From assembly GCA_017003895.1 (NCBI GenBank), contig GCA_017003895.1_4520.1: a stretch of DNA of 64,000 bases, one strand, 5' to 3'. Both the position numbers and the translations under genes were made by a program. Positions 13,153 to 24,776 of this stretch are shown piece after piece. The stretch is from a phage. The notes under the pieces were generated by a model, which was not told the DNA's origin, did no database searches, and worked only from the letters and a program-made list of their open reading frames with translations. Numbering within the stretch: position 1 is the first letter of the stretch; each line of letters starts with the position of its first letter.

Positions 13153-14114
13153 TGTACTCTTTAGAAGAATTTAATAACCAAGCTATAAATGCAGATTTCC
13201 AACGAAACAATATGTTTAGTTGTGTATTTGCTACTACACCATCGACTAAATCATCTTCACTAATTTCGTCAATTGGTAGTTTTGCTTATAATAACTTAGG
13301 GTTGGATTCTGATTGGTTAGGATTGACTCAAGGTGATATCAATCAGGGCGTAACAACCCTGATTACAGCAGGAACACAGAAATTAATTCGAAAATCAGGT
13401 GTAAGTAAATATCTGATTGGAGCAATGAGTCAACGTACGGTACAAAGCTTGTTAGGTGAGTTCACAGTAGGAGCTTATCTGATAGACTTCTTCAATATGG
13501 CATATAATAATACAGGTTTAATGATTTATTCTGTAAAAATGCCTGAGAACCGATTATCTTATGAAACGGATTTCAACTATAACTCCCCGAACATCCGAAT
13601 TACCGGTCGAGAAATGGACCCGTTAGTAATAAGCTTTAGAATGGATTCCGAAGCATCCAACTTTAGAGCAATGCAGGACTGGGTAAACTCAGTCCAAGAC
13701 CCTGTAACAGGTCTTCGCGCTTTACCACAAGACGTCGAAGCAGATATTCAGGTTAATTTACATGCACGAAATGGTTTACCGCATACCGCTGTCATGTTCA
13801 CCGGATGTATTCCTGTTAGTGTCTCTTCTCCTGAGTTAACGTATGATGGTGATAATCAGATAACAGTTTTTGATGTAACATTTGCTTATCGCGTTATGCA
13901 ATCAGGTGCTGTAAATAGACAGGCTGCTTTAGAATGGTTGGAATCAGGACTTATTAGTAGTGTTTCAGGAATGTTTGGAAATAATCAGAATGATTCTGGT
14001 CTAGGAAGTGCAGTATCAAGACTTTCTAGATTAGGTGGGACCGCTGGAGGTGTGTCTAATATAAACACATTGACAGGTGTGGTGAATTCTACATCAAGAG
14101 TTTTAGGACTATAA
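13152..14114 (+). CDS. 54: baseplate tail-tube initiator gp54
   Basis: 320 aa (T4 gp54 ~320); ATGA overlap with gene 48; followed by a strong terminator. Confidence 0.8.
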   Translation: MYSLEEFNNQAINADFQRNNMFSCVFATTPSTKSSSLISSIGSFAYNNLGLDSDWLGLTQGDINQGVTTLITAGTQKLIRKSGVSKYLIGAMSQRTVQSLLGEFTVGAYLIDFFNMAYNNTGLMIYSVKMPENRLSYETDFNYNSPNIRITGREMDPLVISFRMDSEASNFRAMQDWVNSVQDPVTGLRALPQDVEADIQVNLHARNGLPHTAVMFTGCIPVSVSSPELTYDGDNQITVFDVTFAYRVMQSGAVNRQAALEWLESGLISSVSGMFGNNQNDSGLGSAVSRLSRLGGTAGGVSNINTLTGVVNSTSRVLGL

Positions 14115-14146
14115 GAAAAAAGGGAGACAACGTCTCCCTTTAGGGT
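14111..14146. terminator. bidirectional terminator between gene 54 (+) and the alt-proximal ORF (-)
   Basis: aaaaaa GGGAGAC aac GTCTCCC tttagggttt. Confidence 0.65.
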
Positions 14147-14440
14147 TTATTTACGGAATGAAAGGAATGCTGGTGCTCGGAATGGAGTATCATCTTTAGA
14201 GTATTTAACTAATACGACCATTGGTACCTCTGTTTCTAAATGTCCTGTCAATACACCGATAAAAATTTGATCAGTGTGCTCAGGGACACGAAAGTTTTTA
14301 AGAGGTTCCATAGCAATATGGAATGCACCTGGGAATACTCGATTCAATTCGTCAATCACAGCTTCGTTAAAAACATCATCCGCTGGGATAACATCTTCAA
14401 CTACTAGTTCTTGACCATTAAAGCGAAGCATAGATTTCAT
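14147..14440 (-). CDS. hypothetical protein (alt-proximal small ORF)
   Basis: ORF trimmed to internal Met (MKSMLRFNGQ…, 97 aa) so that it does not overlap alt; its own early promoter lies at 14470-14499. Confidence 0.5.
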   Translation of the reverse strand: MKSMLRFNGQELVVEDVIPADDVFNEAVIDELNRVFPGAFHIAMEPLKNFRVPEHTDQIFIGVLTGHLETEVPMVVLVKYSKDDTPFRAPAFLSFRK

Positions 14441-14469
14441 AACGTTTTCCTCATGTTGTTGATGGGATG

Positions 14470-14499
14470 ATAGTATCACACATCCATGTGTTTGTAAAC
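14470..14499 (-). promoter_or_regulatory. early (sigma70-type) promoter inside the last codons of alt
   Basis: Minus strand GTTTAC (rc 14494-14499), 18 nt, TACTAT (rc 14470-14475); drives the ORF starting at 14440. Confidence 0.45.
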
Positions 14500-16586
14500 T
14501 ATCCTTGGACAAATTTAAACGGAACTGATTCTAAATCCATTAAAGATGCTAACAATTTCAAACCTTTAGGTGCACTAGTTTTTTCTACAAATGAGGAGAA
14601 CGATACCGGCTCATCCGATTCGATTTCACCCGTCATAGCAACCACCTCGCCCGTTTCCATGAGAACATCACCATCATAAATGACGGCTTCATCCAACTGG
14701 TCTGAGGACATGACTTCAGCTTGAATAAATTTAAGGTTGGATTCTAAACCTGCACCGGTGTCAGATGACGCATCTGTAATTTTATTTATCTGCAAGAGAA
14801 TGCCTCTAGGCAAAATAATTTCTTGCTCATTAGGGTGATTACTCAACTGTCCTGGATAAATCACGTTAACTTTATGGGCGCCATCAATAGCCCATCCAAC
14901 GTTAACACGGATTTGTTCTGGAGCATGCATAGCTGTTCTTACTTGACTAGGAGAAATAGTAACACCTTCGTCATTATTGTCAATGTTAAGCTCTTTGCGA
15001 ACTTCTTCAGGAGCAAGTCCAAGGGCAACGTTCTCTTTAAACCCGCCGAAAATAATAGGAGCTAGTGAAGTGGAAACATAGTTTCTGAAGTAGAATACCT
15101 TATTTTTAACCATTGCTTCGTAAATAGGCATTCTGATAGACTGAGCTCTATATAACGTTAGTCCTTCAGGTAAACGGTCTCCATTTAAAAACGCCGAATC
15201 AAGACCATCAATAGCGCGTTTAACTTCATCTTCATCTGCAACATCGTAAAAATCTGGTTTATAACGACCCAACAACATATTATTGATATCTGTATACGCA
15301 GAAGAGGCATATTCACGAATAGCTCGTTTTTCAGCAACAGAGTATTGTTTAGGGTCACGATTCATTGTTATATTAAAGGTGCCTCTAGCTGATTCTCGTG
15401 CATAAGTATACATCACATTAGACAAGAACGCTGATTTACGTTGTTTCCAAGTTCTTTCAGATACTTCAGCTAAAACGTCGTCAGGCAGTTGGAAATTATC
15501 ACGTCTAAAATCTTCAAACCATTCGTCTTTAATAGAGTCTGCAATTTCATTTGCAGCTTCAACAAAAGCAGCTAATGCTTTAACAGATGTTGTTTTTTCG
15601 GTTTTAATTTTCTTAGCAAACTTTTCTAAAGTCGGCTTAATAACACTACCATAAGAAACTTCATCGGCAAATTTAAAGGATTCATCAATACGATTATAAA
15701 TCTTATTTTCGATATCAGCAACTAAAGTGCCTTTTGCTGTGGACGATGCTTGGGCTAGTACGATTTCATATGCTTCAGGAAGTAATTCGGCTGTAGCCGG
15801 GCCACTAACTTCTTTAGCAGAATTTTCGTATTTCTGGAATAACTCACCTTCTTGACGGTCAGCTTCTAAAGATTGACTTGCTGCAATAGCACGACGAGAA
15901 ATTTTAGTGCGAGCAATAACAGGCTTATCTTTACGTTTTTCTTCTACCGCGGCAATAGAACCAGCGATAGCCGTTTCTTTGGTGACCTTTTCACCGGTCT
16001 TTTTACTCACATAAACTTCGCCAACATCAGAATCTACTTTCGTGTACAACTCTGTGTTAATGTTAGGGATGCCTTTAATATCTTCAATGTTGGCATTTTT
16101 ACGAACCATCATCACATAGGTGTGTTTACCGGTGAATTGATACATTGCCGACAATACTTTAAAACGACCACCGGTTTTAGTAGAAACTAAACGAGCAAGA
16201 AGAGTTTGAAGCTGCTGTCCACGTCCTTTCAATTTCTTGGTAGGGAATCTGAACAGAACCGCATCCATACGAAGAGCTTTAACCTGTTCATATACTGTAT
16301 TGAAAATGGTGTTGATTGCATCAATAGGAGCAGGACCAAGGCCGTTTTTCAATTCAGCGAGATTACCCTTTTCAGACAGACTCATAATAACAACATGGGC
16401 ATATTTGTCGCCAAGTTTAACTTGTTTTACAGCATCGCCTTCAGAAAGGTAAGAGAATAAGCGAACTACGATGTTTGTATCGATATCACCAATTTTCCAG
16501 ACTTGTGGAACTTTAGCTTTAGGGTTCAAATTGACGACAGGAAGACTGCCTTCAGATTCAAACACTTCATTTAATTGTTCAGACAT
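14499..16586 (-). CDS. alt: Alt ADP-ribosyltransferase (packaged, modifies host RNA polymerase in T4)
   Basis: 695 aa; C-terminal ART core …YRAQSIRMPIYEAMVKNKVFYFRNYVSTSLAPIIFGG… (R / STS motifs); position between 54 and 30. Confidence 0.85.
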   Translation of the reverse strand: MSEQLNEVFESEGSLPVVNLNPKAKVPQVWKIGDIDTNIVVRLFSYLSEGDAVKQVKLGDKYAHVVIMSLSEKGNLAELKNGLGPAPIDAINTIFNTVYEQVKALRMDAVLFRFPTKKLKGRGQQLQTLLARLVSTKTGGRFKVLSAMYQFTGKHTYVMMVRKNANIEDIKGIPNINTELYTKVDSDVGEVYVSKKTGEKVTKETAIAGSIAAVEEKRKDKPVIARTKISRRAIAASQSLEADRQEGELFQKYENSAKEVSGPATAELLPEAYEIVLAQASSTAKGTLVADIENKIYNRIDESFKFADEVSYGSVIKPTLEKFAKKIKTEKTTSVKALAAFVEAANEIADSIKDEWFEDFRRDNFQLPDDVLAEVSERTWKQRKSAFLSNVMYTYARESARGTFNITMNRDPKQYSVAEKRAIREYASSAYTDINNMLLGRYKPDFYDVADEDEVKRAIDGLDSAFLNGDRLPEGLTLYRAQSIRMPIYEAMVKNKVFYFRNYVSTSLAPIIFGGFKENVALGLAPEEVRKELNIDNNDEGVTISPSQVRTAMHAPEQIRVNVGWAIDGAHKVNVIYPGQLSNHPNEQEIILPRGILLQINKITDASSDTGAGLESNLKFIQAEVMSSDQLDEAVIYDGDVLMETGEVVAMTGEIESDEPVSFSSFVEKTSAPKGLKLLASLMDLESVPFKFVQG

Positions 16587-16611
16587 AGTGTTTTCCTTTT
16601 AGTAATAATTT

Positions 16612-16642
16612 ATATTTATGCCAAAAAGAGCCCGAAGGCTCT
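16612..16642 (-). terminator. rho-independent terminator between the gene 30 operon and alt
   Basis: Stem AGAGCC cgaa GGCTCT (16627-16642), T-run on the minus strand; last stem base overlaps the upstream stop codon. Confidence 0.55.
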
Positions 16643-16830
16643 TAATCCACAATCGGGAGCAAAGTACGATAAACTTCAAAATTAGGGCCTTTTTCGTACT
16701 TATCGAAATTGTCCATAAAAATATGATAGGAATCGTTATTAGGAAAATCTAATATAATCTGAGAGCAAGAGGTGGAAACATCTCCACCATCCTTCTTAGC
16801 TACAATAACTGTTTCTAAATAAGCTTTCAT
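16642..16830 (-). CDS. hypothetical protein
   Basis: 62 aa from internal Met (MKAYLETVIV…); ATG overlaps gp30 stop (TAATG). Confidence 0.5.
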   Translation of the reverse strand: MKAYLETVIVAKKDGGDVSTSCSQIILDFPNNDSYHIFMDNFDKYEKGPNFEVYRTLLPIVD

Positions 16831-18323
16831 TATAAACCTGTCTGGGACCACGGTCCAAATACGTCTTCAAACGAATCCGCTTCTGTTTTATCAAAACGGA
16901 ACCCTTTAATAATTGGAAGGAAAATACCTACAGTACCTTCACGGCCTTTAGAATGAACCCAACCATTACATTCACAATCAGCGATACGTCCAATTAATTT
17001 ACCTTCACGAGCTTCGGTCATTAATCGTTCACGGTCCAAATCATGACGCTCATCTAAAGGAATAAGAACCTTTACACCGTCAACTGTTTTATGAGTTGTA
17101 TCTTTAAAACCTGAACCACAATCAGTTGTAATACGACGACAACGTGATACGAGTTCGACACCACCTAATTTGTTAGGGTCTTTAGAGTGTTCATAGTATC
17201 CTACAACTTCTAAAGCGATATCAATAACTTCTTTAAATTTAATTAGGTTCTTAGAGCGTTTGTTTTCCCAGTATGAATCACGGTTTTTAAGGATAATACC
17301 TTCAAGACCTTGGTCAACATATTTTTTATAAACCACTTTAGCTTCATCAAGATTACGAACTATCTGGTTTTCGATAGGTTCAATTCGTTTAAAGCCTTCA
17401 GCCATATTTTCAAGAGCAGCAAAACGAACATCGTATTTCTGACCTTTAATTTTGCCGTCAGAATAGACTTCATCTAAAGGAACATAGTCCCAGGCTTGAA
17501 GAACCATACCTTCCGCTTCTTTAGGAGAAATAGTCCCTTGAAGAGATTTATTTGCTAAACCATTTGAAGTGCTACGGTCTGCAACTTGTACTTCTTCGGA
17601 TTCTTCATTATCACCAAATAAGAACGACAGGTCATTTCCTGAGCTCACAGCCTTTTTAATATCAAATGAATGATAAACTAATTCACCGTCGATTAAAACC
17701 CCATTAGGGTGTCTTTCACGAGCTTCTTTAGTCATTTCCATTAGTTCATCTGCTAATAGAGTAAGACCATGGTATTCATTACCTGCACGAGAAAAGAATT
17801 GAACACCATCATCGCGAACTTCAGCGAAACAACGAGCACCATCGGCTTTTAATTGAGCAAATGCGGGCCATTTAATATTTTTAGTAATCAATTTCTCGTC
17901 ATATGCAGATGCTAACATCTGTGGTTGCAATTGAATAAGTCCAGGCCACACCTTATTCGCGATAGACACTGAAGCACCTACTTCAAGGTCGCGCATCATT
18001 ACACGACGAAGGACTTCTACATCATCAGGTTTACCGTCAGCGATATAACCCATGAGCTCTTTAATTGCCGCATTACCGGTGAGTTTACGAGTGGCTAATG
18101 TGAACTCAATAAAATCCAACATGTCATCTAATTCAAGAAGACCATACGCTTGAGACCTTTCACCTGGTCCTGGCCATTTCTTAATATAATACTGGATACC
18201 ACGTGCATATGTTAAACGATACACACGTTCAAGTAATTTGTTGTCCTTATTTTTCTTAAGGATTTCCTGTTTTGTTTTAGTAGAACCGATCGCAGCTATT
18301 TGGTTTAAAATATCTAAAATCAT
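16830..18323 (-). CDS. 30: ATP-dependent DNA ligase gp30
   Basis: 497 aa; adenylation lysine motif KADGAR, N-terminus MILDILNQIAAIGSTKTKQEILKKNKDNKLLERVYRLTY… close to T4 DNA ligase. Confidence 0.92.
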   Translation of the reverse strand: MILDILNQIAAIGSTKTKQEILKKNKDNKLLERVYRLTYARGIQYYIKKWPGPGERSQAYGLLELDDMLDFIEFTLATRKLTGNAAIKELMGYIADGKPDDVEVLRRVMMRDLEVGASVSIANKVWPGLIQLQPQMLASAYDEKLITKNIKWPAFAQLKADGARCFAEVRDDGVQFFSRAGNEYHGLTLLADELMEMTKEARERHPNGVLIDGELVYHSFDIKKAVSSGNDLSFLFGDNEESEEVQVADRSTSNGLANKSLQGTISPKEAEGMVLQAWDYVPLDEVYSDGKIKGQKYDVRFAALENMAEGFKRIEPIENQIVRNLDEAKVVYKKYVDQGLEGIILKNRDSYWENKRSKNLIKFKEVIDIALEVVGYYEHSKDPNKLGGVELVSRCRRITTDCGSGFKDTTHKTVDGVKVLIPLDERHDLDRERLMTEAREGKLIGRIADCECNGWVHSKGREGTVGIFLPIIKGFRFDKTEADSFEDVFGPWSQTGL

Positions 18324-18589
18324 TTGATGTCCTCGATTTTGGTTACGGTTCTATTATAAGCCACTTCATCTAGAAGCGATTTCAGCGTTTTCTGATAAGT
18401 TGTAATCCATTTACCGAGTCCTTCAACATAATATTCTGAAATGTAGATGAACCCTTGTTCAACACACTCTTTAAATATTTCTGCGTCTTTTACTGAACGA
18501 AACAATGGCCAGTCTCGAAAGAACATGTTAACGTGACCGTAGTCACGTGTGGTATTTTTGCCATCTGTAATATCATGAACTACAAACAT
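18320..18589 (-). CDS. hypothetical protein (30.1 position)
   Basis: 89 aa; ATGA overlap with gene 30. Confidence 0.55.
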   Translation of the reverse strand: MFVVHDITDGKNTTRDYGHVNMFFRDWPLFRSVKDAEIFKECVEQGFIYISEYYVEGLGKWITTYQKTLKSLLDEVAYNRTVTKIEDIK

Positions 18590-18598
18590 AATTAACCC

Positions 18599-19423
18599 TT
18601 AACAATTTATAGACCAAGTCCATTTAGACGAATCTAAAGGAAAGTTTTGAATCGTCCACCACGGCTGCATATCAGTTGGTCCTGGGGTTCGCCAGGTATA
18701 TGGAGTACGTGTTGTCGAGGGGCCACCAATTTGATTAGGCCATGCACCTGGACTTGTTGCACCAGATTCTTTAAGCAAATCCGCCAATCGTTTTAAAAGG
18801 TCTTCACGATCTGAATCTGAATTATTCTTAGGCAGAACCAAACGAGATTCAATATCATCCCACGTGTGTACACGTTGTGCAGTACGAGGAATGGCATCAC
18901 GTTCACCACGAGCCAACCAATAAATCGGTACATTAAGAATTTCTGCCGCATGGTCACAATGATGAGCTAAATCGTCAACGTAACAAATTACGTTATATTT
19001 TGTTTTAGCTAGTTCGAATAATTGTTCCTTTGAAGAATCATGACCACACATCATTACTTCAGAGAAAGCGCCTGGGAACAAAGCATTCAAATTAAATTGT
19101 CTATTCAATCGAGCATCAATTGAATCACCTAGCGCCGTCACGGCTACAAAATTATAGTCTTCTTTTAGTTTATTGATAACTCGAAGAGCATCAGAATAAG
19201 GCGCTAAGTAACGAATAAAATCAGAGCTATTATATTTTTCTATTAATTGTTTACCAAGGTTATCGTCGGTATTGAACAGTTTACCAGGAGAAATAAATTT
19301 TTCGTCCTGAATCATTTTTAAAATATGTTCTAATGGAAGGTTATATTTTTGGGCAAAATAAGGAAGTCCAGATTGCCAGCTTAAACATACACCATCAATA
19401 TCAGTCAAAATAGTAGGCTTCAT
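18599..19423 (-). CDS. HAD-superfamily hydrolase (putative nucleotidase/phosphatase)
   Basis: 274 aa; N-terminal HAD motif I LTDIDGV and C-terminal Asp-rich motif (YVDDL). Confidence 0.6.
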   Translation of the reverse strand: MKPTILTDIDGVCLSWQSGLPYFAQKYNLPLEHILKMIQDEKFISPGKLFNTDDNLGKQLIEKYNSSDFIRYLAPYSDALRVINKLKEDYNFVAVTALGDSIDARLNRQFNLNALFPGAFSEVMMCGHDSSKEQLFELAKTKYNVICYVDDLAHHCDHAAEILNVPIYWLARGERDAIPRTAQRVHTWDDIESRLVLPKNNSDSDREDLLKRLADLLKESGATSPGAWPNQIGGPSTTRTPYTWRTPGPTDMQPWWTIQNFPLDSSKWTWSINC

Positions 19424-19887
19424 AAAGAGTCTCTTAATAGGTTTAACACGTCAATAAATTCATCTTCAGTTAGTATTGTATCATCTTTTGTTAGGTGGCT
19501 GGCCATGCTGTGCTTCAAAATTTTTCCTTTAGAGGCTTGTAAGGCATCACGAAACCCCTTATTTTGGATCGCGGCTTCAAAATATGCATTTGTGTATAAT
19601 TCTTTCCACGCTTCGGAGTATCTTGAAAATGGAACTCCTAACCAGAAGAGAGTCCCACGGTCCTGAGCTCTTGCGTAAGACCTTCCAGCTTGCTGTGCAG
19701 CCAATCCAGACAACCCAAATATACGTCTTTGTTGTTCAACATTTTTCACCTTACATCCTTGGAGAAATCCTTCAAGACCTCCGAATTGAATACCATCCAT
19801 AACAAAAGGCCATTGAGCAAAGTTACTTAATGCACATGACGGCCATTTGAAATTACTTCTTATTTCTAATTCAGACATCTTTAACAC
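19420..19887 (-). CDS. NADAR/YbiA-like domain protein (putative ADP-ribose N-glycosidase)
   Basis: 155 aa; …LSNFAQWPFVMDGIQF…EGFLQGCK… resembles the YbiA/NADAR core (FSNFA..WP…DG); motif-level assignment only. Confidence 0.5.
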   Translation of the reverse strand: MLKMSELEIRSNFKWPSCALSNFAQWPFVMDGIQFGGLEGFLQGCKVKNVEQQRRIFGLSGLAAQQAGRSYARAQDRGTLFWLGVPFSRYSEAWKELYTNAYFEAAIQNKGFRDALQASKGKILKHSMASHLTKDDTILTEDEFIDVLNLLRDSL

Positions 19888-20083
19888 TTATAATTTCAAC
19901 ATCAGCCCAATGTCCATAAGCCGGTAGACGGTCTTTGATAGATAATCCACCGTCATATTTCAGCATTTTAATTGTTTTAGTATATGGTTCAACTTTTCGG
20001 GCCCATGGGCTTACATCAGTCACACGATAAGTAACTTCAACCATTTCTGTACCTAACAATTTCTGAATTAATTTCTTTAACAT
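19871..20083 (-). CDS. hypothetical protein
   Basis: 70 aa ORF in the 30.x cluster. Confidence 0.45.
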   Translation of the reverse strand: MLKKLIQKLLGTEMVEVTYRVTDVSPWARKVEPYTKTIKMLKYDGGLSIKDRLPAYGHWADVEIISVKDV

Positions 20084-20084
20084 A

Positions 20085-20279
20085 TTATCCTCGCTTTAAA
20101 GATTTGATTACAGACAGTTCACCACCCATGCGAACGTCTTCAGTTCCATCGACCCATAGGACGGTGTAGGCTTCTTTAATAGTAGAATTACCTAATTTAA
20201 AAGCAGGTAAAACCTTTGAAATCATTCCGGGGATACCTATACCTTTTAACTGGACAGTTTGTGATAAGAATAGTTGCAT
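20085..20279 (-). CDS. hypothetical protein
   Basis: 64 aa ORF, start overlaps upstream stop. Confidence 0.45.
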   Translation of the reverse strand: MQLFLSQTVQLKGIGIPGMISKVLPAFKLGNSTIKEAYTVLWVDGTEDVRMGGELSVIKSLKRG

Positions 20280-20566
20280 TAGAACCTCATCTGAAAGCCG
20301 TGCGATTTAACATTACCGCCATAAATGTCGGAGGTATTGACTTCACGTGCGGCGCTAGGGTCGATGTTAATAACATGGTTGAGCTTAGTGATTGCTAAGG
20401 TATCACGACCGTTAACAGTACGGAATTCTACCGGGCACACAACATCAGCATAAGCCTTAATGGATTCACGAGTGGGCTGTTTGTCGGCAGGAACATCTTT
20501 ACCCGCTTTAGAGAAAACAACTTCACAGAAATTTTTACGAGTATCAAAATAAGTGGTCATAAACAT
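20279..20566 (-). CDS. hypothetical protein
   Basis: Start moved to Met12 of the track ORF (MFMTTYFDTRKN…): GAGGAAAA RBS precedes it, and the longer N-terminus would read through an intergenic hairpin. Confidence 0.5.
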   Translation of the reverse strand: MFMTTYFDTRKNFCEVVFSKAGKDVPADKQPTRESIKAYADVVCPVEFRTVNGRDTLAITKLNHVINIDPSAAREVNTSDIYGGNVKSHGFQMRF

Positions 20567-20607
20567 AATATTTTCCTCAAAGGAGGCCGAAGCCTCCATT
20601 TTTAAGA

Positions 20608-20973
20608 TTAAATATCGAATTCGTTCAGAACTACATCAAAGATTGCTTCTAGGTGTTCAGGTTTAGCTCGGTTACTCAGGATATGACGAATCCAAGTTTT
20701 AACCAGAAGTTTACGATTAACACCATTCCAGCAAGGATGAGTACCTAAATCACGCTGACGGAAATCATCATCTAATGCAATTTTAAAATTTGAACCTTCC
20801 ATCGTGATTGAAACCGTGATACCATTTTCAAATCGCATATAAACGTAATTAGGAGTCATGCACTGTTCGATTTCACAAACTGTACCGTTTTCGTGTTTCC
20901 ATAAGCAAATAACTTCAGAAGAACCAGCAATACCGTTAGAAACATATTTACGTTCGAAGTTGATGTAGTTCAT
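20608..20973 (-). CDS. hypothetical protein; likely paralog of 21048..21416
   Basis: 121 aa; shares size and a …C(M)TP… motif with the neighbouring 122 aa ORF; own early promoter. Confidence 0.55.
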   Translation of the reverse strand: MNYINFERKYVSNGIAGSSEVICLWKHENGTVCEIEQCMTPNYVYMRFENGITVSITMEGSNFKIALDDDFRQRDLGTHPCWNGVNRKLLVKTWIRHILSNRAKPEHLEAIFDVVLNEFDI

Positions 20974-21014
20974 TTTATTCTCCAGATGTTTAAGTTGTTT
21001 ATTGGTACAGGTCT

Positions 21015-23664: not shown

Positions 23665-24656
23665 TATTGAACCTTATTAATATAAGTTAACAGCTCTTTA
23701 GTTTGTTCCCAACTGATGCACGCATCGGTAACGGAAACGCCATAGGACATATTATCAGAAATTTTTTGATTTCCTTCATGTAGGAATGATTCTATCATAA
23801 TTCCTTTGACCAAATCATTAGCTGCTAAATTTTTACCAATACCAATTTGATTGCTATAATGCCCAGCAGCGTTTGCATGGCTACAGTCAACCATTACATA
23901 ATGATTCAGACCTACTGCACTTGCTTTGTTAGAAGCTTCTTGAATATCAGAAGAATGATAGTTCGGGCCGTTGGTCCCGCCACGCAATACGATATGCGTA
24001 TTCTGATTACCTTCAGCTTCAACAATGCCTACAGTACCATCGACGTCCATACCCATATACCGATGAGGCCTGGCGGCACTATACATCGCGTCTGTAGCTA
24101 CTTTAATAGAACCATTGGTTGCGTTCTTGAAGCCTACGCACATCGGTAGACCTGAAGCAATTTCACGATGTGTCTGACTTTCAGTCGTACGGGCGCCAAT
24201 AGCAACCCATGAGAAAATACCAGAAAGATACTTAATCGTGAATGGGTCTAATACTTCAGTTGCTAATGGAAGTCCCATACGTAGAAGTTTACGACACAAT
24301 GTTCGTGCAACTATAAGACCGTGGTTCATATCAAAACTTCCGTCAAGATATGGATCATTTACAAGACCTTTCCAACCTACGGTAGTTCGAGGCTTTTCAA
24401 AATAAACGCGCATCACTAACAGAACATTAGGAAGACGAGTTTGAAGTTCAGCCAGACGTTTGCCGTATTCAACAGCAGCAATAGGGTCATGAATTGAACA
24501 AGGACCTACAACGATAAGTTTGCGTGGGTCTTCACCGTTCATAATCGAATTAACTTGTTCGCGATGAGAAGCCACTTGTGATGCGTAAGCTTCCGACAAA
24601 GGAATAATCTCAGCCAGTTCTTTTGGAGAAATAAGTTTTCTGACGACAGGTAACAT
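23664..24656 (-). CDS. 3-deoxy-D-arabino-heptulosonate-7-phosphate (DAHP) synthase, class I (AroG/F/H-like)
   Basis: 330 aa; signature blocks GPCSIHD, RVYFEKPRTTVGWKGL, GARTTESQ, VGFKN, LRGG, DCSHAN, EGNQ, TDAC; stop overlaps the cd start codon. Confidence 0.9.
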   Translation of the reverse strand: MLPVVRKLISPKELAEIIPLSEAYASQVASHREQVNSIMNGEDPRKLIVVGPCSIHDPIAAVEYGKRLAELQTRLPNVLLVMRVYFEKPRTTVGWKGLVNDPYLDGSFDMNHGLIVARTLCRKLLRMGLPLATEVLDPFTIKYLSGIFSWVAIGARTTESQTHREIASGLPMCVGFKNATNGSIKVATDAMYSAARPHRYMGMDVDGTVGIVEAEGNQNTHIVLRGGTNGPNYHSSDIQEASNKASAVGLNHYVMVDCSHANAAGHYSNQIGIGKNLAANDLVKGIMIESFLHEGNQKISDNMSYGVSVTDACISWEQTKELLTYINKVQ

Positions 24657-24776
24657 AACAATCCTTAGGAGATATAAACAGATTCTGATTCAACAATACC
24701 TTTAACCGGATTAGACAGGCTAAGTTGGTAGTGCTCAGATTTATGACCATTCTCGATAGTAATGAGATAGCTCTCA

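Follow-up and report, generated by a model that had tools for sequence, protein, structure and literature searches.

The region described here is very probably the standard T-even block 30.4-30.3-30.2-30.1-30-alt.1-alt, whose AdfN ortholog, HAD phosphatase and Alt transferase have three independent functions; as a feature, Alt, gp30.2 and gp30.3 together are ordinary and are explained by earlier published work. The window, i.e., the whole 64,000 nucleotide stretch that was analysed, comes from a Mosigvirus-type T-even phage with 97.6% identity to PTK and AlbertHofmann/Bas47. Its minus strand carries, in ascending coordinates, alt, alt.1, gene 30, 30.1, 30.2, 30.3 and 30.4 (Table 1). Transcription runs from high to low coordinates and hence 30.3 and 30.2 are upstream of the ligase gene, not downstream of it as the original prediction had it. 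The open reading frames of alt, 30.2 and 30.3 are all real and lie where they had been placed, apart from the start of 30.3. From alt to 30.3 the span is 5.4 kb, all on one strand, with three genes between alt and the 30.2/30.3 pair.

Table 1. Features of the 30.4 to alt region, in the order of transcription.
Feature	Position	Strand	Description
gene 30.4	19871..20083	-	70 aa; PHROG 2042; stop overlaps 30.3 start
gene 30.3 / adfN	19420..19878	-	152 aa; NADAR-superfamily, predicted DNA ADP-ribosylglycohydrolase
gene 30.2	18599..19423	-	HAD phosphatase-like; start overlaps 30.3 stop (ATGA)
gene 30.1	18320..18589	-	DUF3045; PF11243 E=1.4e-26; between 30.2 and ligase gene
gene 30, ATP-dependent DNA ligase	16830..18323	-	PF01068 E=9e-27; PHROG 114
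alt.1-alt intergenic signals	16607..16641	-	hairpin, T run, T4-late-promoter-like site; by eye
alt	14499..16586	-	Alt-family ADP-ribosyltransferase, 695 aa

By homology, gp30.3 of the window is an ortholog of T4 gp30.3/AdfN. It matches PF08010 (Phage_30_3, E=2e-69) and is 96% identical in amino acids to its T4 and RB51 counterparts, with a C-terminus, ...EFIDVLNLLRDSL, that is unchanged from T4. The six substitutions (K11R, E89P, I120V, M125I, H128G and D139A) are conservative or of surface type and spare the catalytic positions. The two proteins are alike in their place in 30.4-30.3-30.2, their length, their E36, K43 and H123, and their intact C-terminal helix, and what differs is the carrier genome, Mosigvirus-type here and Tequatrovirus for T4. 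The gene had been correctly picked out as a NADAR-like open reading frame, but its 5′ boundary was set at the GTG at 19887; translation almost certainly begins at the ATG at 19878, which is preferred because it overlaps the stop of 30.4 (ATGTCTGA) and because the same start is annotated in RB51, T4 and Bas47. Is the closeness to T4 due to recent horizontal transfer? That was ruled out by a nucleotide identity of 88.7%, with 40 synonymous codon differences; non-synonymous ones number 6, and the disparity indicates purifying selection on 30.3. The family is present in 1511 phage records (tblastn), which, like the count for the gp30.2 core given below, puts the genes well beyond a chance occurrence. 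In most deposited relatives gp30.3 is still a ‘hypothetical protein’.

The NADAR-like core that had been proposed from motif resemblance is borne out. Direct sequence searches of PDB, NCBIfam and PADLOC with gp30.3 found nothing, and taken alone the window protein has no match to PF08719 (NADAR) at E<=0.1, so the relationship is one that becomes visible by profiles or structure. Fourteen of 60 gp30.3-family members match PF08719 (best E=1.5e-7), the family profile aligns with that of YbiA (hhalign probability 93%, E=2.9e-7; hmmsearch of the family against YbiA, E=0.009), and the predicted fold is that of YbiA/NADAR, with E. coli YbiA among the best structural and profile matches. Lack of a NADAR/YbiA profile match together with a different fold, which would have spoken against the assignment, was looked for, and the outcome did not refute it. 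E36 and K43 (minus strand codons at 19771-19773 and 19750-19752) are invariant among 60 homologs and align with the E..FQ..K motif of YbiA. H123 (19510-19512), also invariant in 60 sequences, closes strand 120-123; published descriptions of the phage clade have His at this place of the last strand, where YbiA has Glu and BC4488 has Asp (PMC11125620, PMC11543638). Compared with the NADAR antitoxins associated with DarG1/DarT1 (the BC4488 subfamily; Geobacter lovleyi NADAR, 8bat), the window protein has no cognate DarT neighbour, no DarG1 N-terminal extension, and His rather than Asp in that strand. Its gene is an orphan that the phage carries for counter-defence, and does not encode an antitoxin.

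What does such a protein do? That a phage NADAR could counter DarT-type ADP-ribosylation of DNA was a correct hypothesis, though not a new one, as it is already published and experimentally established for the T4 ortholog (PMC11825919, PMC11125620). [quoted passage not shown] In vitro it hydrolysed guanosine-linked ADP-ribose in DNA and not the thymidine-linked form (PMC11125620). In the published T4 transposon screen, whose table was taken to be the DarTG1 comparison because of the order of its sheets and because the main text describes the loss of adfN, insertions in 30.3 were lost (log2FC -7.25). The further proposal, that the NADAR protein trims the phage's own modifications, fares badly against that specificity for guanosine over thymidine, and the portions of these papers drawn on here report no activity on protein modifications of the Alt type. 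By extension from T4, gp30.3 would be a small stand-alone NADAR enzyme, produced during infection, that would cleave the N-glycosidic bond linking ADP-ribose to guanine in DNA and so would erase DarT1 marks from replicating phage DNA and permit growth on DarTG1 hosts. We infer that this activity and role hold for the window allele too, given its homology, fold and catalytic residues and its being full length. The last point is not trivial: the allele of RB69, also a Mosigvirus, is described as frameshifted and inactive with its C-terminal helix lost (PMC11825919), unlike the one here, which has no frameshift and whose helix 138-151 is confidently predicted.

The neighbouring gp30.2 is a predicted, active-looking HAD-fold phosphatase, and the earlier reading of it as a HAD-family hydrolase with a DxDGV motif stands. 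Motif I is D8-I-D10-G-V, and among 54 homologs D8, D10, K132, D150 and D151 are invariant while T96 is found in at least 90%. The predicted fold has a Rossmannoid HAD core (residues 1 to ~200) with a helical C1 cap inserted after motif I, followed by a disordered, hypervariable, Trp/Pro-rich tail (~223-274). Sequence searches of Pfam, NCBIfam, PADLOC and PDB gave sub-threshold HAD matches only. Motif I and the start of the cap align, with the Pfam and NCBIfam families below threshold, with mouse mdN, and the nearest named subgroup is that of the 5′(3′)-deoxyribonucleotidases (mdN/cdN, NT5C), which share with gp30.2 the HAD core, cap, DxDGV, T, K and DD but not the tail. The family is uncharacterised and mostly from T4-like phages: its core is present in 1442 phage records (tblastn), an exhaustive profile search gave ~1100 cluster representatives, and a literature search on ‘gp30.2’ found no paper. 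The few longer fusion proteins (P0238, P0278, P0183, P0228) have no recognisable partner domain, and the genomic surroundings of two distant members were uninformative. The gene is non-essential on K-12. Its product would act on some small phosphorylated compound, with a nucleotide the likeliest. Less probably, gp30.2 might act with ligase, e.g., in end clean-up or nucleotide turnover.

At the other end of the region, the ADP-ribosyltransferase that had been assigned to alt is upheld by PF03496 (ADPrib_exo_Tox, E=6.5e-28, residues 413-610) and, over its full length, by PHROG 802, ‘Alt-like RNA polymerase ADP-ribosyltransferase’ (E~1e-261; residues 1-694 on profile 1-674). On sequence grounds it is a diverged member of the Alt family of transferases whose C-terminal ART domain carries the catalytic motif R-S-ExE (R480, S505-T-S, E587-x-E589), and it is collinear end to end with RB51 Alt at 46% identity. 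In T4, Alt targets host proteins, RNA polymerase alpha being an example. The T4 protein is packaged into the head, injected, and modifies proteins (PMC9503650); with it the window Alt has in common a full-length collinear match, the R-S-ExE motif, and alt.1 and gene 30 as neighbours, though an alt.-2-type paralog is absent after the window alt and a 97-121 aa DUF5498 ORF is there instead. Inspection by eye of the gap between alt.1 and alt revealed a GC-rich hairpin, AGAGCC-TTCG-GGCTCT, then a T run, and, ~20 nt ahead of the start codon of alt, the T4-late-promoter-like TATAAATT, a 7/8 match. A rule-based terminator scan did not flag the hairpin, and an exact TATAAATA search did not find the site upstream of alt, nor was that motif enriched in the window. 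From what is known of T4, Alt would be a packaged and injected transferase; in the window its gene sits behind a late-promoter-like site of its own.

The tempting alternative is that the three genes form one coordinated module in which Alt writes the mark, the NADAR protein removes it, and the ADP-ribose or phosphate product set free is then processed by the HAD enzyme. Location on one strand within a few kilobases, the ATGA overlap of 30.3 with 30.2, and the presence of both families in much the same set of phage genomes (1511 versus 1442 records) would fit such a module, but the co-occurrence is confounded by common descent within the Straboviridae, and gene order tells otherwise. It is with the DNA ligase gene, rather than with the NADAR gene, that gp30.2 has a conserved genomic partnership. 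Of 78 viral loci with gp30.2, 71 have a ligase gene 0-1.5 kb downstream of it, while just 36 have a NADAR gene within 4 kb; conversely gp30.2 is within 4 kb of the NADAR gene in ~25 of 80 loci, and in several T4-like genera the two are ~60 kb apart, the genes being adjacent in T-even-type genomes only. In the same T4 comparison under DarTG1, insertions in alt (log2FC -0.01) and in 30.2 (71 sites; log2FC -0.12, p=0.61) were neutral. The hairpin and late-promoter-like site belong to alt alone, and the published T4 work has gp30.3 acting on guanine-linked ADP-ribose in DNA, whereas Alt acts on proteins. The synteny counts, the neutral insertions and the signals before alt are the grounds on which the three genes are considered independent; they contradict the ‘ADP-ribosylation gene set’ initially envisaged, and gp30.3 forms no working unit with the Alt or HAD genes. 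A joint module is largely refuted and its chance of being correct very slight.

Nor is it at all probable that gp30.3 is instead a housekeeping N-glycosidase of YbiA type, acting on riboflavin-pathway intermediates or soluble ADP-ribose derivatives and not on DNA. YbiA is described as a riboflavin-pathway housekeeping enzyme (PMC11825919) and ranks high among the structural and profile matches of gp30.3, but identity to it (2b3w; PF08719) is ~20%, and gp30.3, like its family, has His for the Glu that defines the YbiA subfamily. The T4 protein, so close in sequence, de-ADP-ribosylates DNA and counters DarTG1 by experiment, and in T4 loss of the gene has already been demonstrated to cost DarTG1 resistance. 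An additional activity on soluble substrates, besides that on DNA, may exist. With gp30.3 as a DNA-directed enzyme there is the question of assistance. T4 AdfN did not rescue uninfected cells from DarT1 toxicity and rescued non-T-even phages partially (PMC11825919, PMC11125620), an incompleteness outside T-even infection that suggests a further T-even factor may contribute. Could it be gp30.2? AdfN is described as fully effective only during T-even infection (PMC11825919) and in T-even-type genomes translation of 30.2 is coupled to that of 30.3. However, 30.2 insertions were unaffected where adfN insertions were lost, the adjacency is not kept beyond those genomes, and phosphomonoesterase chemistry has no obvious part in cleavage of an N-glycosidic bond; gp30.2 as helper was rejected on synteny and the published transposon data, and is highly improbable. 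A helper role for gp30.4, encoded beside adfN, is unlikely. Among the table rows covered, 30.4 is the sole gene besides adfN with significant depletion under DarTG1, and a moderate one (log2FC -1.79, q=0.014), for which a polar effect of insertion on adfN is the simpler explanation. In favour of a helper role, homologs of gp30.4 are upstream of the NADAR gene in T-even-type loci only; against it, gp30.4 is only ~45% identical between the window phage and T4, compared with 96% for AdfN.

For annotation, ‘hypothetical protein’ labels in relatives of gp30.3 can be upgraded, though little is gained beyond that, and 30.2 can be seen as a widespread T4-like HAD gene whose family adjoins the DNA ligase gene. 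With an intact adfN, and not the broken allele of RB69 type, this phage should plate on E. coli with DarTG1, and adfN status is useful in host-range prediction for phage-therapy collections.

Over positions 14000-21000 the window is 97.6% identical, at full length, to the Escherichia phages PTK, AlbertHofmann (Bas47; Straboviridae, Tevenvirinae, Mosigvirus) and vB-Eco-KMB38, and it matches 740 phage records in total. The minus-strand order 30.7 ... 30.4, 30.3, 30.2, 30.1, 30 (DNA ligase), alt.1, alt is that of the annotated T4-type block of RB51. The three ORFs named in the original prediction, encoding Alt, a HAD hydrolase and a NADAR-like protein, are where it put them; its placing of the latter two downstream of the ligase gene was mistaken, since the genes are read towards lower coordinates, which puts both 30.3 and 30.2 upstream of it. 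The NADAR-like ORF, proposed as 19420-19887, is real and is kept with a shifted start, as the likely initiation codon shares bases with the stop of 30.4 (ATGTCTGA) and RB51, T4 and Bas47 are all annotated with it.

Features of the window discussed in the text
Feature	Position	Strand	Remarks
30.4	19871-20083	minus	
30.3 (adfN)	19420-19878	minus	likely ATG start at 19878, 152 aa
30.2	18599-19423	minus	274 aa, DxDGV motif
gp30.2 tail, residues ~223-274	18599-18760	minus	disordered, pLDDT <55, Trp/Pro-rich
30.2 plus ligase gene	16830-19423	minus	
alt	14499-16586	minus	695 aa; ADPrib_exo_Tox and PHROG 802 matches
Hairpin	14119-14141		perfect 10-bp stem, 3-nt loop, T runs on both strands
Counterpart of Bas47 aldolase gene	~23727-24719		placed by offset only

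Between this Mosigvirus-type block and that of the Tequatrovirus RB51 conservation is very uneven from gene to gene: amino-acid identity across 14499-20083 is 96% for gp30.3, 94% for gp30.7, 85% for the gp30.2 core, 64% for ligase, 54% for gp30.1, only 46% for the collinear Alt and ~45% for gp30.4. In Bas47 a 330-aa ‘putative aldolase’ is annotated (23751-24743 of its locus) right after dCMP deaminase in transcriptional order, at the place that the small cd.1-cd.3 ORFs occupy in RB51, and two putative homing endonucleases are annotated further along. The hairpin listed in the table, flanked by the converging baseplate gene 54 (plus) and the DUF5498 ORF that follows alt (minus), resembles a terminator for both directions.

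Is the NADAR-like protein a NADAR? The ORF matches Pfam PF08010, ‘Bacteriophage protein GP30.3’ (E=2e-69), and as a single sequence it gave no match reaching Pfam NADAR, PDB sequences, NCBIfam or PADLOC. Its family does so: against PDB the family profile found E. coli YbiA (E=0.009, with the SNF...E..FQ..K motif aligned), hhalign with YbiA from MG1655 gave 93% probability (E=2.9e-7), and among 60 aligned homologs, in which P13, A16-L-S-N-F20, E36-G-F38, Q40, K43 and H123 are invariant, 14 individually match Pfam NADAR PF08719 (best E=1.5e-7). The top three Foldseek PDB matches of the AlphaFold2 model (pLDDT 92.8, pTM 0.88) are all of this fold: YbiA 2b3w and the NADARs of Phytophthora (8bau) and Geobacter lovleyi (8bat). 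With profile matches to YbiA and NADAR, and no different fold in the model, gp30.3 is, on profile and predicted structure, a NADAR enzyme. PHROG 652, which holds gp30.3, has a profile of 296 positions of which gp30.3 covers only 126-272, and several metagenomic homologs (e.g., P0029, P0033 and P0079) have 201-254 aa, so some family members carry an N-terminal extension or extra domain.

The proposal that a phage NADAR counters DarT defence was right, and was already demonstrated for T4; together with the gene assignments it is the published AdfN story. The published accounts report that NADARs undo the ADP-ribosylation of guanine by DarT1 and that phage NADARs have His at the position of the YbiA Glu (Schuller et al. 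2023, PMC11543638); that phage NADARs are named ‘gp30.3 proteins’ and T4 gp30.3 in vitro hydrolyses guanosine-ADPr, not thymidine-ADPr (2024 study, PMC11125620); and that 30.3, renamed adfN, is necessary and sufficient for T-even phage resistance to DarTG1 (Johannesman et al. 2025, PMC11825919). [quoted passage not shown] Transposon sequencing is also reported to show loss of 30.3 insertions under DarTG1 (2025 preprint, 10.1101/2025.11.20.689424).

The other two assignments also held. Alt matches Pfam ADPrib_exo_Tox (E=6.5e-28) and, over its full length, PHROG 802, ‘Alt-like RNA polymerase ADP-ribosyltransferase’, and it has R480, S505-T-S and E587-Q-E589. Some 20 nt before its ATG, TATAAATT is a 7/8 match to the T4 late-promoter consensus; a search for exact TATAAATA between alt.1 and alt found none, and a GC-rich hairpin with T run, read there by eye, was not flagged by a rule-based terminator scan. 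In gp30.2 the DxDGV motif lies at the protein start (MKPTILTDIDGV). None of 54 aligned homologs departs from D8, D10, K132, D150 or D151, and T96 is nearly invariant, giving the four HAD motifs, and the model (pLDDT ~95 at residues 1-195) has a helical cap between motifs I and II, so that gp30.2 is a predicted HAD-fold phosphatase. Its tail is hypervariable, in length as well as in sequence, and is missing from many homologs, which have only ~200 aa; some tails have short motifs in common, e.g., GTGIEYLxxQPT. Other matches by sequence were weak (HAD_2, E=0.014; mouse mdN 2jao, E=0.11). An exhaustive profile search yielded ~1100 cluster representatives at E<=1e-3, the fusion partners and genomic contexts of distant members gave no functional clue, and a literature search for ‘gp30.2’ found no paper. 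Our best guess is that it would act on a nucleotide or related small phosphoester.

Do these genes form an ADP-ribosylation gene set, as had been proposed? Synteny, neutral insertions and differing substrates all argue against a functional unit. Across diverse T4-like phages gp30.2 is directly upstream of the ligase gene, a linkage much tighter than to the NADAR gene. Of 78 viral loci collected by means of the gp30.2 profile, 71 have the ligase gene 0-1.5 kb downstream but only 36 a NADAR gene within 4 kb; Serratia phage X20 has ~60 kb between its NADAR and gp30.2 genes. The gp30.2 gene is thus tied to that for ligase, and the NADAR gene changes place independently of them. From the gp30.3 side, gp30.2 is within 4 kb in ~25 of 80 viral-contig loci, these being T-even-type and a few others. 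Occurrence of gp30.3 in 1511 phage records and of gp30.2 in 1442 reflects shared Straboviridae ancestry. Both T4 genes are non-essential on K-12, and under DarTG1 insertions in 30.2 and alt are neutral.

Insertions in T4 genes, from the published T4 transposon table with the adfN loss, taken, by sheet order and main text and not by its header, to be Control versus DarTG1
Gene	log2FC	Significance
30.3	-7.25	q=0
30.4	-1.79	q=0.014
61.2 (adfA)	-0.34	not significant
30.2	-0.12	p=0.61, 71 sites
30.1	-0.01	not significant
alt	-0.01	p=0.97, 178 sites

A writer-eraser pairing of Alt with gp30.3 is without support, since T4 gp30.3 was found active on guanine-ADP-ribose in DNA, whereas T4 Alt is reported to modify host proteins (PMC9503650). 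The proposed set is conserved T-even gene order and no functional system.

T4 AdfN reportedly fails to neutralise DarT1 in uninfected cells and rescues non-T-even phages only partly, for which reason the authors postulate an additional T-even factor (PMC11825919). If the transposon table is as we take it, gp30.2 is ruled out for this role, at least by necessity, and the simplest account of why 30.4 insertions are moderately depleted is polarity on adfN, whose start overlaps 30.4. That gp30.4 itself helps AdfN is a slim chance, kept because its homologs stand upstream of the NADAR gene in T-even-type loci only; against it, gp30.4 of this phage and of T4 are ~45% identical and AdfN 96%.

The allele in this phage differs from T4 AdfN by six substitutions (K11R, E89P, I120V, M125I, H128G and D139A). 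Compared with RB51, adfN has 88.7% DNA identity, with 40 synonymous versus 6 non-synonymous codon differences, which contradicts recent transfer and suggests unusually strong purifying selection. As all six substitutions spare the catalytic positions and the C-terminus is complete, we infer that this phage probably encodes a functional AdfN.
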